Assembly: GCA_021154325.1 (NCBI GenBank)
Contig: JAJKIR010000044.1
Coordinates: forward strand, 10,859-74,858
Source: Gemmatimonas sp.
GTDB taxonomy: Bacteria > Gemmatimonadota > Gemmatimonadetes > Gemmatimonadales > Gemmatimonadaceae
DNA: 64,000 nt
Reading direction: 5' to 3'
The notes under the pieces are model-generated. The model saw only the letters and a list, made by a program, of their open reading frames with translations. It did no database searches and was not told the origin of the DNA. Numbering within the stretch: the first letter of the stretch is position 1; each line of letters begins with the position of its first letter. The translations under genes were made by a program, and so were the position numbers. Of the stretch, positions 13,775 through 21,941 are shown piece after piece.

Positions 13775-14971
13775 ATGAAGACTCTCGATGCACCCGACAT
13801 CGCGGCGGTTCGATCGGAGCATCCCAGCGTCCGCGCCCGGTTCGTCGCCGCTACCGCCTCGGAACATGCCGCTGAAGTGGATCGCGATTCGCGGTTCCCA
13901 CGGGAGACCTTCGCTGCCGCGCGTCAGCACCGGCTCTTGAGCATGTTGGTCCCGACGGAGCTGGGCGGAGATGGTGCATCTGTCTCCGACGCGGTCGACG
14001 TCTGCTACATGCTGGGCATGGCGTGCGGGTCGTCGGCGATGATCTTCGCCATGCACCAGATCCAGGTCGTCATCCTGCTGCGCCACGCCAAGAATAGTCC
14101 GTGGCACCAGCAGTTGCTGAAACGGCTCTGCGACGAGCAGCTGCTGCTCGCGTCGTCGACGACCGAGAACCAGATGGGCGGGGCGGTTCGCGCCAGCGTG
14201 TGCGCGGTCGAGCGCGACGGACCACGCATGTCGTTGGTCAAGACGGCGACCGTGATGTCTTACGGCGCCGAAGCAGATGGAGTGCTCGTCACCGCTCGCC
14301 GAACGCCCGACTCACAACCATCCGATCAGGTGCTGGTAACGCTCCTCAAGGATGATTATGAGCTCGAGAAGATCAAGGAGTGGGACACGATGGGCATGCG
14401 CGGCACCTGCAGCACGGGCTTCACGCTGCGCGCATCGGCTGCCGCCGACCAAGTGATCCCCGAATCGTATGAGCGCATCCATCCGCAGAGCATGGTGCCG
14501 ATCGCGCACCTGACGTGGAGCGGCGTGTGGTCCGGCATCGCGGCGGGGGCGGTGGCACACGCGCGGCGGTTCGTGCGCAAGGGCGCCGCGCAGGGTAGCG
14601 CCGCGCAGGCGCCGGGTGCGTCGCACCTCACGAGAGCAATGATGTTGCTCCGCGCCCTGCGTGGCAGCATCGCGGCCGCGGCAGCGGGCTACGAGAGTGC
14701 AGCGGTCGAGCCGGAACGCCTCGAGGCGATGGATTTTCAGGCGGGGATGAATTTGCTCAAGGTCAATTCGTCCGAGACCGCGATCGCAACGGTGCTACAC
14801 GCCTTGCAGGCCTGCGGACTGTCGGGCTATCGGAACGACGGCGAGTTCAGCGTCGCGCGGAATCTCCGCGATGTGCTCTCGTCGTCGATCATGATCAACA
14901 ACGAACGCATCCTCGCCGGCGCGGCGAGCTCGCTGCTGCTCTTCGAGGTACCTGCCCGCCTCAGAGACTGA
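13775..14971 (+). CDS. Acyl-CoA dehydrogenase-fold flavoprotein (possibly acyl/aminoacyl-carrier-protein dehydrogenase or flavin monooxygenase component)
   Basis: The track ORF starts at GTG 13760. I prefer ATG 13775, preceded by GGAGG at 13762..13766. ACAD N-, middle and C-terminal domain features are present (DRDSRFPRETFAAARQHRLLSMLVPTELGG; ...GYRNDGEFSVARNLRDV...). By eye, the canonical MCAD-type catalytic Glu position (IYEGT) reads IMINNE. Confidence 0.85.
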   Translation: MKTLDAPDIAAVRSEHPSVRARFVAATASEHAAEVDRDSRFPRETFAAARQHRLLSMLVPTELGGDGASVSDAVDVCYMLGMACGSSAMIFAMHQIQVVILLRHAKNSPWHQQLLKRLCDEQLLLASSTTENQMGGAVRASVCAVERDGPRMSLVKTATVMSYGAEADGVLVTARRTPDSQPSDQVLVTLLKDDYELEKIKEWDTMGMRGTCSTGFTLRASAAADQVIPESYERIHPQSMVPIAHLTWSGVWSGIAAGAVAHARRFVRKGAAQGSAAQAPGASHLTRAMMLLRALRGSIAAAAAGYESAAVEPERLEAMDFQAGMNLLKVNSSETAIATVLHALQACGLSGYRNDGEFSVARNLRDVLSSSIMINNERILAGAASSLLLFEVPARLRD

Positions 14972-14972
14972 C

Positions 14973-15884
14973 ATGTCGACAACCCAGATTTCGACCGATC
15001 GCCTCGAGGCGATCACCTCGACCATCCTGCAACCGACCGCCGCCGCTGGTGTGCAGGGTCGGACGGGCCGTTTCGAGGAAGTCATCGCGGGCCTGACGAG
15101 CCTCATCACGCGTCACCGGCCGAGCGGCGCGGAAGTGCTGCGCTTTCCGCCCGTCATGAGTCGCGCGCTGCTCGAGAAGTCGGGCTACCTGAAGAGCTTC
15201 CCCCATCTCCTCGGCGTAGTCAGCTCGATGACGGGAACGGAAGCCAAGATCCGCGCACTCGTCGAAGGCCGCGCCGCGGAGCAGGAGTGGGTCGACGCGC
15301 TCGCCGCTACGGATCTCGTGCTGACGCCGGCCGCGTGCTATCAGGTGTACCCCATCGTCGCCGCACGTGGTGACGTTCCGATCACCGGCGTCATCGTGGA
15401 CGTGGAGTCGTACTGCTTCCGCCGCGAAACATCGGCCGAACTTGGCCGGATGCAGGCGTTTCGCATGCGAGAATACGTCTGCATCGGCGCGCCGGAGACC
15501 GCCGTCGCCTTCCGGGAGAGTTGGAAGGGCAAGGCGCAGCAGCTCGCCAACCAGCTCGGCCTGCCATTCACTCTGCTTCCGGCAAGCGATCCGTTCTTCG
15601 GACGCGCCGGCAAGTTGATGGCCGTGAACCAGGTTGAGCAAGCGCTGAAGTTCGAGCTCCTCGTGCCGGTCAATTCGGACGAGGCGCCGACCGCGTGCAT
15701 GAGCTTCAACTACCATCAGGATCACTTCGGCACAACTTGGGGGCTGCGCACCGACGGTGGCGCTGTTGCCCACACGGCGTGTGCCGCATTCGGCCTGGAC
15801 CGACTGACGATCGCGCTCTTCGCGACGCACGGGTTGGATTTCGAGGCGTGGCCGCTCACGGTGCGCGAGGCTCTCGGCATCTGA
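14973..15884 (+). CDS. Amino acid--[acyl-carrier-protein] ligase (truncated class II seryl-tRNA-synthetase-like catalytic core)
   Basis: 303 aa with no N-terminal tRNA-binding coiled coil. Class II motif 2-like sequence VESYCFRRETSAELGRMQAFRMREYV and motif 3-like sequence GLDRLTIALFATHG are present. It starts 1 nt after the ACAD stop and its stop overlaps the next start (TGATG). A carrier-protein gene lies in the same operon. Confidence 0.7.
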   Translation: MSTTQISTDRLEAITSTILQPTAAAGVQGRTGRFEEVIAGLTSLITRHRPSGAEVLRFPPVMSRALLEKSGYLKSFPHLLGVVSSMTGTEAKIRALVEGRAAEQEWVDALAATDLVLTPAACYQVYPIVAARGDVPITGVIVDVESYCFRRETSAELGRMQAFRMREYVCIGAPETAVAFRESWKGKAQQLANQLGLPFTLLPASDPFFGRAGKLMAVNQVEQALKFELLVPVNSDEAPTACMSFNYHQDHFGTTWGLRTDGGAVAHTACAAFGLDRLTIALFATHGLDFEAWPLTVREALGI

Positions 15885-17230
15885 TGCATCGCGAGACGAT
15901 CGCGCTCCATTTCGGCTACACGGCCGACGGCCACGCGCCAACCACCGCGGTACCGATCTATCAGTCTGCGGCGTACGAGTTCGAGAGTGCTGAACACGCC
16001 GCGGCGTTGTTCAATCTCGAGCGCGAGGGGTTTCGCTACTCACGCATCAGCAATCCAACGACGGACGTACTGGAGCGGCGCGTCGCAGCGATGGAAGGAG
16101 GACGTCAGGCGCTGTGTGTAGGGTCCGGACAGGCCGCGATGCACTTTGCGACGCTGAACGTGACCGCGCCGGGAACGAACATCGTTTCCGTTCCGCAACT
16201 GTACGGCACCACCTATACCCTCTTCGCCCATCTTTTTCCGACGATGGGCGTCACCGTCAAGTTTGCAGCGGACGACAGCCCCGAAGCCATCTCCGCGCTG
16301 ATCGATGATCAGACACGGGCGGTGTACTGCGAGAGCGTCGGGAATCCGGCCGGAAATATCTGCGATGTCGAAGCGCTCGCCGCAGTGGCACACGACCATG
16401 GCGTACCGCTCATCGTGGACAACACCGTCCCGACGCCGATTCTCCTTCGACCAATCGAGTACGGCGCGGACGTGGTCGTGCATTCGCTCACGAAGTTCAT
16501 GGGCGGCCATGGCACGACGATGGGCGGCATCATCGTCGATAGCGGGAAGTTTCCCTGGGCGAAGCACGCGCGGCGCTTCCCGATGTTCAACGAGCCCGAT
16601 CCATCGTACCACGATCTCGTCTACACGGAACACTTCGGCGATGCGGCGTATATCGGCCGTTGTCGCAGCGTGTACCAGCGGACACTGGGCTCGGTGCTCT
16701 CGCCGCTCAACGCATTCCTGCTGTTGCAAGGCATCGAGTCGGTGGCGTTGCGCATGGAGCGGCACGTGGAGAACGCGCGACGCGTGGCCGAGTTTCTTCG
16801 CGACGACCCCCGGGTCGAGTGGGTGAATTACGCCGGGTTTCCCGAGAGCCCGTACTATCACCTTGCTCAGAAGTATCTCGTTGGCCGGGCGTGCTCCATC
16901 CTGACATTCGGGATACACGGTGGCCTAACGGCTGGGACGCGCTTCTACAATGCGCTCGAGCTCATCAAGCGCGTCGTGAACCTCGGCGACTCGAAGTCGC
17001 TCGCCTGTCATCCCGCGTCGACCACGCACCGGCAGATGAGCGCCGCCGAGCAGCAGAAGGCCGGGGTGACACCGGAGACGATCCGACTCAGTATCGGCAT
17101 CGAGCACATCGACGACATCCTGGCGGATCTCGATCAGGCGCTCGACACGGCGGTGCCGAGTCAGGTGAAGCGCGGATCATCGTTAGGTGTACCGAGCGCC
17201 GCACCCGTGCCGACCGTGCTGGCACAATGA
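15884..17230 (+). CDS. metY: O-acetyl/O-succinyl-homoserine sulfhydrylase-type PLP gamma-replacement enzyme (MetY/Cys-Met metabolism family)
   Basis: In-frame part of track ORF 15695..17230, started at ATG 15884 ([33 protein letters not shown]...). It has [12 protein letters not shown] and the PLP-lysine motif [11 protein letters not shown]. Confidence 0.9.
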
Positions 17231-21404: not shown

Positions 21405-21418
21405 CGTCATCGTTAGGG
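21399..21418. terminator. Inverted pair of the dispersed 8-mer (GCCTAACG tcat CGTTAGGg) overlapping the ligase stop codon
   Basis: GCCTAACGTCATCGTTAGGG forms a 7-bp-arm inverted repeat (CCTAACG/CGTTAGG) with a 4-nt spacer. The TAA stop of 19998..21404 is the TAA inside the motif. Its function as a terminator or attenuator is unproven. Confidence 0.3.
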
Positions 21419-21464
21419 TGGAAGGCAGGGCGATCATGCCGACACCACCGCGTGAGGTGATTCG

Positions 21465-21941
21465 ATGATGGATGCCGACAGCTTTCGCTGCATCCTGAGC
21501 CGCTTCCCGTCGGGGATCGCGGTCATCACTGCGCGCGACGGCGAGCGCGACGTCGGAATGACGGTGAGTGCTTTCTGCTCCGTCAGCTTGCGACCGCCGC
21601 TCGTCCTCGTGTGCATCGATCACACCGCATCGATGCACGACCTGCTCCTCCGGCATCCGAAGCTCGGCATCAACATCATGGCGTCGGAGCAACAGGCGCA
21701 CTGTCAGCGGTTTGCCGACAAGAACGAGACGTGTCGCTTCGAGGGCATCGGCTGTGCGCGCGGTGAGAGCTCGGTAATGCTGCTCGACGACGCCGTGGCC
21801 CAGCTCGAGTGCCAGTTGGTGCATCATTGCGAGGCCGGCGATCACACGATCTTCATCGCCGCAGTCGAACGCGGCGCCAGGCACGACGGACGACGACCTC
21901 TCGTTCACTACGGTGGTCAGTTCACCCAACTCGCGCCCTAG
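21465..21941 (+). CDS. Flavin reductase (NAD(P)H:flavin oxidoreductase, split-barrel FMN-binding family)
   Basis: It reads FRCILSRFPSGIAVITARDGERDVGMTVSAFCSVSLRPPLVLVCI, typical of HpaC/VlmR/DszD-like flavin reductases. GAGGTG lies upstream of the ATG. Confidence 0.85.
   Translation: MMDADSFRCILSRFPSGIAVITARDGERDVGMTVSAFCSVSLRPPLVLVCIDHTASMHDLLLRHPKLGINIMASEQQAHCQRFADKNETCRFEGIGCARGESSVMLLDDAVAQLECQLVHHCEAGDHTIFIAAVERGARHDGRRPLVHYGGQFTQLAP

Follow-up and report, generated by a model that had tools for sequence, protein, structure and literature searches.

What might a bacterium make with an operon that couples a seryl-tRNA synthetase (SerRS)-like ligase to a carrier protein, homoserine-processing enzymes and a flavoprotein in the midst of polysaccharide genes? 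This question is raised by a 64,000-nucleotide stretch of DNA from Gemmatimonas sp. (assembly GCA_021154325.1, contig JAJKIR010000044.1), referred to here at its full length as the window. Eight co-oriented genes in it encode, in this order, a flavoprotein of the acyl-CoA dehydrogenase (ACAD) fold, an amino acid:[carrier protein] ligase (below, aa:CP ligase), a MetY-type pyridoxal phosphate (PLP)-dependent gamma-replacement enzyme, a MetA-type homoserine O-acyltransferase, a group II PLP-dependent amino-acid decarboxylase, a carrier protein of a type that we call CPa, an adenylate-forming ligase (AMP-ligase) and an NAD(P)H:flavin reductase (Table 1). Our tentative answer, to which we give a probability of roughly 0.45, is that the operon is a selected variant of a widespread cluster family, one that lacks the second carrier protein (CPb) of most of its relatives, and that it makes a thiotemplated non-sugar decoration for the Wzx/Wzy-type polysaccharide of the surrounding locus.

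The ligase and the integrity of the operon

The ligase scored 428 bits against NCBIfam NF005479, for which the curated cut-off is 357, and its residues 8-303 aligned to Bll0957 of Bradyrhizobium diazoefficiens (PDB 3mey/4h2w, E = 1e-109) with an identity of about 60%, as read off the alignment. Residues 114-299 alone align to residues 311-507 of the 527-aa type-2 SerRS 3w3s, and the match to TIGR00415 covers model positions 304-500 only, a pattern from which the protein is firmly predicted to be a class II SerRS-like catalytic core without the N-terminal tRNA-binding domain. C122, E167 and C270 align with the zinc-ligand Cys/Glu/Cys of Bll0957, which we take to be numbered C131/E176/C279, and these three residues, R150 and E152 of motif 2, and R277 of motif 3 are invariant in 72 orthologues. 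An earlier reading made from the sequence alone (the sequence-only reading) had proposed a truncated SerRS-like aa:CP ligase and had named the Cys/Glu/Cys triad as the point to check; with the family cut-off passed, a nearly full-length alignment to Bll0957, and the triad and both motifs intact, the protein is now confidently assigned as a genuine aa:CP ligase of the Bll0957 type. The structures and kinetics of such ligases have been studied from 2010 onward, and Bll0957 itself, according to Mocibob et al., reportedly favours glycine. The sequence-only reading also held that the physiological product of such systems is not known, with which a 2022 review agrees in stating that their biological role is unknown (PMC9437257). 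The exact ligase protein carries the NCBI label "MAG: Bradyrhizobium sp." (MAG, metagenome-assembled genome), and an ACAD with 100% identity across 95% of its length bears the label Gemmatimonadaceae; the relatives at 80-90% identity all come from Gemmatimonadaceae MAGs, the Bradyrhizobium orthologues are at about 56%, and the contig very probably belongs to Gemmatimonadaceae and was mis-binned in one MAG.

The genes of the operon are tightly packed. The ACAD and ligase genes meet at TGAC ATG with a 1-nt gap (14971/14973), the ligase and MetY genes share TGATG (15882-15886), the MetY/MetA and decarboxylase/CPa junctions are both ATGA (17227-17230 and 19700-19703), and the CPa and AMP-ligase genes overlap by 14 nt (19998-20011). 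Larger spacers are found between the MetA and decarboxylase genes (14 nt) and between the AMP-ligase and flavin reductase genes (60 nt), and a convergent downstream gene shares 4 nt with the flavin reductase stop. The longest open reading frames (ORFs) start at 15695 in the MetY frame and at 16660 in the MetA frame. Every ORF boundary and junction quoted in the sequence-only reading was thereby reproduced. An identical ligase is present on at least four independently assembled public contigs or samples, whose own gene calls yield products of 398, 303, 448, 335, 484, 103, 468 and 158 aa. Because the same eight products are found on separately assembled contigs, the arrangement is no artefact of assembly or ORF calling, and the single translationally coupled operon that had been proposed is, with its overlapping junctions confirmed, firmly predicted to be both real and intact. 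A riboswitch or RNA leader was sought upstream of it, and Rfam gave no match at E <= 1 between positions 9000 and 24000; promoter-like and terminator-like consensus sites within the operon showed no excess over the shuffled expectation. Pairwise dN/dS ratios (nonsynonymous to synonymous substitution rates) were 0.06-0.25 for all eight genes, values that are rough since dS is near saturation, and 0.06-0.12 for the ligase and the ACAD, pairs between two CPb-less clusters included. All eight genes are thus under purifying selection.

The sequence-only reading had also assigned families to all eight proteins and had noted that no condensation, ketosynthase or thioesterase domain accompanies them; Pfam and NCBIfam scans bear out every assignment, and Pfam finds none of these domains in the eight proteins. 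The MetY-type enzyme (PF01053, E = 1e-122; TIGR01326, 594 bits against a cut-off of 495) has an intact PLP-lysine motif, SLTK (K204), the MetA-type enzyme (PF04204, E = 1e-63; NF003776, 391 bits against a cut-off of 358) has a candidate active-site residue, Cys134, and the decarboxylase (PF00282, E = 7e-62) has the HK motif (K309). The AMP-ligase, which is presumed to load CPa, retains intact core motifs (TSGTTGVPK, TGD, GRxGG and the terminal GK) together with the family-invariant FYDIRRYGG. The PDB relatives of the decarboxylase are group II decarboxylases of many specificities, and the PDB search with the AMP-ligase gave generic ANL matches only, beta-aminoacyl-ACP (acyl carrier protein) synthetases included (E about 1e-13), so that no substrate is inferable for either enzyme.

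A cluster family with two carrier proteins

A search with the ligase at one genome per species returned 505 relatives, of which the best 80 loci were analysed. These span Gemmatimonadota and the Gamma-, Beta- and Alphaproteobacteria, Caulobacteraceae and Bradyrhizobium included. Genes were counted over the 56 loci of at least 15 kb, to which the counts below refer, and presence or absence was scored by tblastn, independently of gene calling. The ligase was found in all 56, the ACAD-like flavoprotein, adjoining the ligase, in 55, and CPb, whose gene adjoins the ACAD gene and is usually divergent from it, in 51. Next in frequency were MetY (42), an Abhydrolase_3 esterase (ABH3; 41), a FabG-like short-chain dehydrogenase/reductase (SDR; 38), MetA, CPa and the 468-aa AMP-ligase (37 each, with CPa directly upstream of the AMP-ligase in 36 of its 37 loci), and a long-chain acyl-CoA synthetase and an uncharacterised 307-aa protein, unk307 (32 each). 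The decarboxylase (18), a class IV aminotransferase (17), a SnoaL-like protein (15), a thiamine pyrophosphate (TPP) enzyme (14), an Acyl_transf_3 protein (6), the flavin reductase (5) and a ThrA-type aspartokinase/homoserine dehydrogenase (3) were less common. Gene order is shuffled between lineages, which speaks for functional coupling rather than inherited synteny. By gene content, these loci make up a widespread orphan cluster family whose predicted core is the triad of carrier protein, ACAD-like flavoprotein and aa:CP ligase. The co-conservation of all eight genes that the sequence-only reading had supposed was found in part: seven of them recur across phyla, and the flavin reductase is lineage-specific.

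The sequence-only reading had weighed whether metY and metA might belong to a mere adjacent methionine operon. Their linkage to the ligase, at the frequencies given above and across four lineages, supports the view that they are cluster-borne copies; furthermore, one MAG with three clusters (L008, L010 and L013) has tblastn matches to MetY and MetA in all three. Some clusters add a dedicated ThrA, and therefore the supply of homoserine appears to be part of the pathway. In the window, an 827-aa ORF considered as a ThrA-type gene turned out to be Wzc-like instead. Paralogous cluster copies, two or three per MAG, were observed in Gemmatimonadaceae (L001 and L012; L008, L010 and L013; L006 and L011; L004 and L007). 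An identical 90-aa upstream ORF in L010 and L013 suggests a recent duplication, and L013 looks degraded, with a MetY fragment called and an ACAD of only 57% identity.

Every locus with the decarboxylase also has MetY (18/18) and none has the aminotransferase or the TPP enzyme, and the SnoaL-like genes all accompany the decarboxylase (15/15). The other type of cluster has the class IV aminotransferase, the TPP enzyme and unk307, with no co-occurrence with the decarboxylase. This mutual exclusion of the decarboxylase and the aminotransferase/TPP pair suggests two cluster chemotypes, of which the window represents the decarboxylase type, and the two may arrive at a related building block by different routes.

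The two carriers of the family are distinct. The CPb of a related locus matches "aminoacyl carrier protein 1", which was co-crystallised with Bll0957 (4h2s_C), at E = 9e-19, and for the carrier of the window, which matches the CPa profile at E = 1e-40 and the CPb profile only at E = 0.006, no match to 4h2s_C was found. A gene for the cognate carrier near the ligase gene is usual for the family, but tblastn with 51 CPb sequences and profile hidden Markov models in six frames found no CPb in the 64-kb window. The spacer between the glycosyltransferase gene upstream and the ACAD gene, 465 bp long, holds a relic of ABH3 that matches residues ~200-239 of 335 of orthologues from more than 10 loci (identity up to 63%, E down to 2e-10). 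In related loci, ABH3 and CPb lie directly upstream of the ACAD gene and divergent from it. Because the ABH3 relic remains and CPb is absent, the cluster of the window derives by deletion from a fuller ancestor, in which CPb was presumably once present alongside the lost hydrolase. It also lacks the SDR, SnoaL, acyl-CoA synthetase and ThrA genes seen in close Gemmatimonadaceae relatives such as L003 and L009. CPb-less clusters are frequent in Gemmatimonadaceae and look polyphyletic in a neighbour-joining tree without bootstrap support, in which the window is sister to a CPb-containing locus, and at least one MAG combines a cluster that has CPb with one that lacks it (L001 and L012). Since the ligase is kept under selection without CPb in cis, either CPa is used or CPb is supplied from a paralogous cluster elsewhere. 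The sequence-only reading had described one carrier protein with two candidate loading enzymes; taken literally, this holds for the window; the state is, however, one derived by deletion, and most loci have two carriers.

The chemistry of the ACAD-like protein bears on what is done with a loaded carrier. It has IMINN where the acyl-CoA dehydrogenase 3pfd has IYEGT, that is, it is without the catalytic Glu at that position, and this motif is invariant among 71 orthologues; another catalytic base may lie elsewhere in the protein (IVD type). The flavin reductase is a clear member of its family (PF01613, E = 1e-41, 142.6 bits), and the NCBIfam entries closest to it are reductase subunits of two-component monooxygenases. 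The missing Glu and the co-operonic flavin reductase favour a two-component oxygenase, and flavin reductases are able to act in trans. An AlphaFold2 model of the ACAD (pLDDT 81) gave the flavin mononucleotide (FMN) monooxygenases TdsC and DszC as top Foldseek matches, tied with true ACADs (TM ~0.73-0.75 for both classes), and nitrososynthase, KijD3 and 3-sulfinopropionyl-CoA desulfinase were also matched with indistinguishable scores. Because both classes tie, the fold is uninformative on oxygenase versus dehydrogenase. Its NCBIfam relatives include 3-sulfinopropanoyl-CoA desulfinase and SfnB (~64 bits each) and DszC, all far below the cut-offs. A carrier-bound aminoacyl group is a more likely substrate than a free amine, because the ACAD is tied to the ligase and CPb and not to the decarboxylase or the reductase. 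The protein is probably an oxygenase (or oxidase) acting on such a carrier-bound group.

The exopolysaccharide locus and the proposed product of the operon

The operon lies inside a complete Wzx/Wzy-type exopolysaccharide (EPS) locus of roughly 11.5-58 kb, as delimited by Pfam and NCBIfam scans, so that the EPS/glycan setting described in the sequence-only reading holds. The setting also recurs: all seven CPb-less Gemmatimonadaceae loci (the window, L005, L006, L008, L010, L011 and L012) adjoin glycan genes, namely those for glycosyltransferases, membrane acyltransferases, deacetylases or a 2-epimerase. In L005, L009 and L012, too, the family 2 glycosyltransferase (GT2) gene that neighbours the operon is found upstream of the ACAD gene, and Acyl_transf_3 genes lie in or beside the cluster at 6 loci in Gemmatimonadota and Proteobacteria.

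We infer the substrates, the order of the steps, the oxygenase chemistry and the acceptor, and with them the function of the operon and the chemistry of its product, and a scheme that joins them would run as follows. MetA would O-acylate homoserine, and the MetY-type enzyme would swap the gamma-acyloxy group for a nucleophile, by default sulfide, which would give homocysteine. The group II decarboxylase would turn the resulting or a related amino acid into an amine, and the AMP-ligase would put a carboxylic or amino acid onto CPa. The aa:CP ligase would thioesterify a small amino acid onto a carrier, which is usually CPb and here would be CPa in cis or a CPb encoded elsewhere, and the tethered aminoacyl group would be oxygenated by the ACAD-like protein, working with the flavin reductase as a two-component flavin enzyme. 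Finally, the non-sugar acyl or aminoacyl unit would be passed to the polysaccharide of the surrounding locus, by a logic like that of the butirosin side chain or of D-alanylation. A narrower form of this proposal, in which a hitherto undescribed homoserine-derived substituent (e.g., one with an aminopropyl group or with sulfur), perhaps oxygenated at N or C and linked to a small amino acid, is built on the carrier and attached to the EPS, seems to us unlikely to be correct in all of its parts.

Several findings weigh against a glycan decoration made in this way. The operon encodes no transferase, the window is without ABH3, unk307 and DUF1839, and the nearest candidate transferases, an Acyl_transf_3 protein and a FemAB-like GNAT, are encoded 11-16 kb away. 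Most proteobacterial clusters lie outside glycan loci, and some of them have a major facilitator superfamily (MFS) exporter and a LuxR regulator, more like a cluster for a diffusible metabolite. The oxygenase part is weakened by the fold search with the ACAD, which returned monooxygenases and dehydrogenases alike at E ~1e-13, and by the restriction of the flavin reductase to a few loci, mostly of Gemmatimonadaceae. Furthermore, the published aa:CP ligases, according to Mocibob et al., are reportedly specific for their own carriers, which speaks against the charging of CPa, and the likeness of the decarboxylase to BtrK of the butirosin pathway is functional only, because group II decarboxylases normally take free amino acids.

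The occurrence of the core cluster in many Proteobacteria away from glycan genes, and the presence in some clusters of an MFS transporter, a LuxR regulator, a cupin, a P450 or a luciferase-like monooxygenase, would also fit a stand-alone small-molecule biosynthetic gene cluster (BGC) whose position among EPS genes is incidental. Its product might be an N-oxygenated, hydroxamate- or azoxy-like compound or a sulfur-containing amine or amide: the decarboxylase would yield an amine, which the ACAD and the reductase would N-hydroxylate, the ligase would supply a carrier-bound aminoacyl group, and the pieces would be joined and released. Four of the eight enzyme classes parallel early steps of valanimycin biosynthesis, and the exclusion between the decarboxylase and the aminotransferase/TPP pair fits two alternative ways of making one and the same building block, an amine or an aldehyde. 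Nevertheless, the ACAD goes with the ligase and CPb (55 and 51 of 56 loci) and not with the decarboxylase (18/56) or the reductase (5/56), no VlmA-like transferase or N-N-bond-forming enzyme was seen, and the glycan neighbourhoods of all seven CPb-less Gemmatimonadaceae loci are hard to call incidental, so that we regard this possibility as doubtful, though it deserves serious weight.

Two further explanations were considered. MetY and MetA exceed their family cut-offs, the relatives of the ACAD in NCBIfam, though far under the cut-offs, include the desulfinase, SfnB and DszC, and Bradyrhizobium-type clusters stand beside an MtnA-like gene (IF-2B family) and contain a branched-chain aminotransferase; the operon might thus serve sulfur or methionine metabolism, in that an SfnB/DszC-like monooxygenase and its reductase would free sulfur, MetA and MetY would fix it to homocysteine, and the carrier genes would be passengers. 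This is very unlikely, given that the constant partners of the ACAD, the aa:CP ligase and the carrier protein, have no role in sulfur scavenging, that MetY is missing from the surrounding 10 kb in 14 of the 56 long loci, that one genome has three copies of the cluster (L008, L010 and L013), and that the AMP-ligase/CPa pair and the decarboxylase would be left unexplained. A still more improbable case, to which we give hardly any credence, is that of a decaying remnant that makes nothing after the loss of CPb, the hydrolase, SnoaL, the long-chain acyl-CoA synthetase and the SDR. The ABH3 relic in the spacer, the absence of CPb from the window and of five genes kept in fuller relatives, and the degraded look of the paralogous copy L013 point in this direction; on the other hand, the eight ORFs are intact with their catalytic residues, their dN/dS ratios are 0.06-0.25, at least four samples yielded assemblies with this architecture, and CPb-less clusters recur, apparently polyphyletically, in the neighbour-joining tree without bootstrap support. 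The glycan decoration is our preferred reading. If its narrower form is true, the operon would be a Gram-negative counterpart, based on an aminoacyl-tRNA synthetase paralogue, to D-alanylation or to side-chain transfer of the butirosin type, the CPb-less variants would show an aa:CP ligase re-wired onto the non-cognate CPa, and the aa:CP ligases would gain a physiological function.

The remaining genes of the locus and its flanks are listed in Table 1. The convergent gene downstream of the operon encodes a signal-anchored alpha/alpha-toroid protein; it adjoins the cluster in L003 and L009 as well and lies inside the cluster in the Steroidobacteraceae locus L023. A second such protein is encoded further downstream, and the two weakly resemble SQHop_cyclase_C and GH127. 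In L010 (6445-8526) a homologue is apparently fused to a formyltransferase domain, according to a crude gene call. Two AsnB-like glutamine amidotransferases were also found, one of which resembles the XrtA/PEP-CTERM family TIGR03108 (561 bits, under the cut-off of 817); no exosortase turned up among the scanned ORFs of the window, in which no search aimed at exosortases was made. The EPS locus is flanked by three large duplicated MacB_PCD-FtsX permeases, which are typical of Acidobacteria and Gemmatimonadota genomes, and an 820-aa ORF upstream of it is probably two genes, with public calls of a TauE-like membrane protein of 379 aa and a Peptidase_S10 protein of 556 aa.

Table 1. Features of the operon, the EPS locus and its flanks, with positions in the window
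Feature	Position	Strand	Family or remark
MacB_PCD-FtsX permease	1220-3922	-	
MacB_PCD-FtsX permease	3981-6776	-	
820-aa ORF	7446-9908	+	probably two genes
Family 2 glycosyltransferase	11549..13309	-	PF00535; divergent from operon, first gene of EPS locus
ABH3 relic, 30 codons	13480..13569	-	tblastn, no intact ORF; in glycosyltransferase/ACAD spacer
ACAD-fold flavoprotein, 398 aa	13775..14971	+	PF02771, PF00441; ORF start 13760/13775
aa:CP ligase, 303 aa	14973..15884	+	NCBIfam NF005479
MetY-type PLP gamma-replacement enzyme (O-acylhomoserine sulfhydrylase family), 448 aa	15884..17230	+	PF01053, TIGR01326
MetA-type homoserine O-acyltransferase, 335 aa	17227..18234	+	PF04204, NF003776
Group II PLP-dependent amino-acid decarboxylase, 484 aa	18249..19703	+	PF00282
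CPa-type carrier protein (GLDSLAF), 103 aa	19700..20011	+	PF00550
AMP-ligase, ANL type, 468 aa	19998..21404	+	PF00501, PF13193
NAD(P)H:flavin reductase, HpaC/StyB type, 158 aa	21465..21941	+	PF01613
Signal-anchored alpha/alpha-toroid protein	21938..23128	-	PF13243 (SQHop_cyclase_C), weak, 28.5 bits; convergent
Remaining EPS locus	23173..57900	mixed	GT2 and GT4 glycosyltransferases, heparinase II/III-like, UDP-glucose dehydrogenase, polysaccharide deacetylase, UDP-GlcNAc 2-epimerase
AsnB-like glutamine amidotransferase	27251-29251	+	resembles TIGR03108
Acyl_transf_3 membrane acyltransferase	33002-34393	-	
Second signal-anchored alpha/alpha-toroid protein	36696-37922	+	
FemAB-like GNAT	37862-38956		
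Flippase	41604-43163		
AsnB-like glutamine amidotransferase	47172-49085	-	
Wzy	49092-50561		
Initiating sugar transferase	51811-52764		
Wza-like exporter	52800-53636		
Wzc-like protein, 827 aa	53750-56233		
MacB_PCD-FtsX permease	59982-62624	+	

Comparison with known systems

The sequence-only reading knew of no described pathway of this composition, and our literature search for a characterised pathway or BGC likewise gave none, beyond a prediction of 2010, the 2022 review and one transcriptome table. According to the 2010 prediction, such ligases aminoacylate a cell-surface (amino) sugar, their redox partner monooxygenates the aminoacyl group, and the linked ORF Atu2574 is a transferase (PMC2922099). 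The sequence-only reading had suggested a non-sugar substituent of a polysaccharide or lipid on the strength of the locus context; the context stands, but the idea is not new, having been published as this prediction.

The early steps of valanimycin biosynthesis draw on four enzyme classes that are also seen in the window, namely a PLP-dependent amino-acid decarboxylase, an ACAD-fold protein (there a two-component N-hydroxylase), a flavin reductase and a SerRS paralogue of class II: VlmD, VlmH and VlmR account for amine formation and N-hydroxylation, and VlmL is a SerRS paralogue that charges tRNA. The ligase of the window, in contrast, belongs to a carrier-charging family and is without a tRNA-binding domain, a VlmA-type transferase is lacking in the window, and its ACAD is less likely to act on a free amine.

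The closest mechanistic analogue is the AHBA side-chain pathway of butirosin (BtrI/J/K/O/V/H/G), with a stand-alone carrier, an ATP-dependent loader, a PLP decarboxylase, a flavin monooxygenase and an aminoglycoside product. None of its proteins is orthologous to those of the window: BtrJ belongs to the ATP-grasp enzymes, BtrK is a decarboxylase of fold type III and BtrO is luciferase-like. Li et al. in 2005 and Llewellyn et al. in 2007 are said to have found that BtrO forms a two-component system with the reductase BtrV and that BtrH moves the ACP cargo to a sugar amine. BtrO is described as a monooxygenase that hydroxylates the side chain and BtrH as a papain-fold transacylase (PMC2922099). 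The window has no equivalent of BtrH or BtrG, and the butirosin pathway is without homoserine-activating or gamma-replacement enzymes. FlvL/N/O of fluvirucin and CtaD/E/F of closthioamide are related systems of carrier-tethered decarboxylation with a like logic. D-alanylation of teichoic acids by DltA, DltC, DltB and DltD offers a functional analogy, in that a dedicated ligase and a small carrier, both of which are also present in the window, feed an envelope glycopolymer. DltA is an adenylating enzyme of the ANL family and not a homologue of the aminoacyl-tRNA synthetases, and the pathway of the window has four extra tailoring or supply enzymes by comparison. No MBOAT/DltB or DltD protein appeared among the window ORFs scanned with Pfam, which included no search aimed at those families; the Acyl_transf_3 protein and the FemAB-like GNAT are the sole candidates for such a role.

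Modules of the Atu2573/Atu2574 type, which form a sister subfamily, have the same carrier/ACAD/ligase triad as the cluster family, with an ACAD 46% identical to that of the window that has the same xMIxNDRI motif and a ligase at ~52%, and the same predicted link to a surface glycan; they differ from the window in being without MetY, MetA, the decarboxylase and the CPa/AMP-ligase pair. On plasmids of Rhizobium and Azospirillum the module is a minimal set of four co-oriented genes, ACP-ACAD-aa:CP ligase-DUF1839, located at 10540-13868 in L084 (Rhizobium binae plasmid p4) and at 10434-13799 in L085 (an Azospirillum brasilense plasmid), where genes for a GH2 glycosidase and an alpha/beta hydrolase come after it; both plasmid modules are tractable for testing the 2010 prediction. 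DUF1839 (PF08893) is a papain-fold family with a faint resemblance to BtrH_N and a putative transferase, for which an action on glycans or cell-wall glycans has been suggested from genomic context. It was found neither in the window nor in the 80 loci by tblastn with two DUF1839 proteins, and unk307, considered as a candidate, was ruled out since it has no similarity to it.

The crystallised Bll0957-Bsr0959 system of B. diazoefficiens (PDB 3mey, 4h2s-4h2y) resembles the window in the zinc triad and motifs 2 and 3 of its ligase and in an adjacent ACAD gene, bll0958, which neighbours bll0957 (PMC10888616). Because of this neighbour, the crystallised pair belongs to the same cluster family, and Bradyrhizobium MAG loci of the family carry MetY and MetA as the window does. 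The window differs in that it has no orthologue of Bsr0959, a CPb, in that its decarboxylase and its CPa/AMP-ligase pair have no counterparts in the Bradyrhizobium-type loci examined, and in that it lies in an EPS locus. The Bll0957 system is thereby placed in a large cross-phylum family that couples the ligase triad to homoserine activation, gamma-replacement and a second carrier/ligase pair, and of which Gemmatimonadaceae have a streamlined version that is consistently found within exopolysaccharide loci. For the 15-year-old question of what aa:CP ligases make, this comparison offers homoserine or homocysteine and glycine or alanine as candidate precursors and EPS as a candidate acceptor, and the family has culturable hosts in B. 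diazoefficiens USDA110 and Caulobacter sp. S45, in addition to the four-gene plasmid modules of Rhizobium and Azospirillum.

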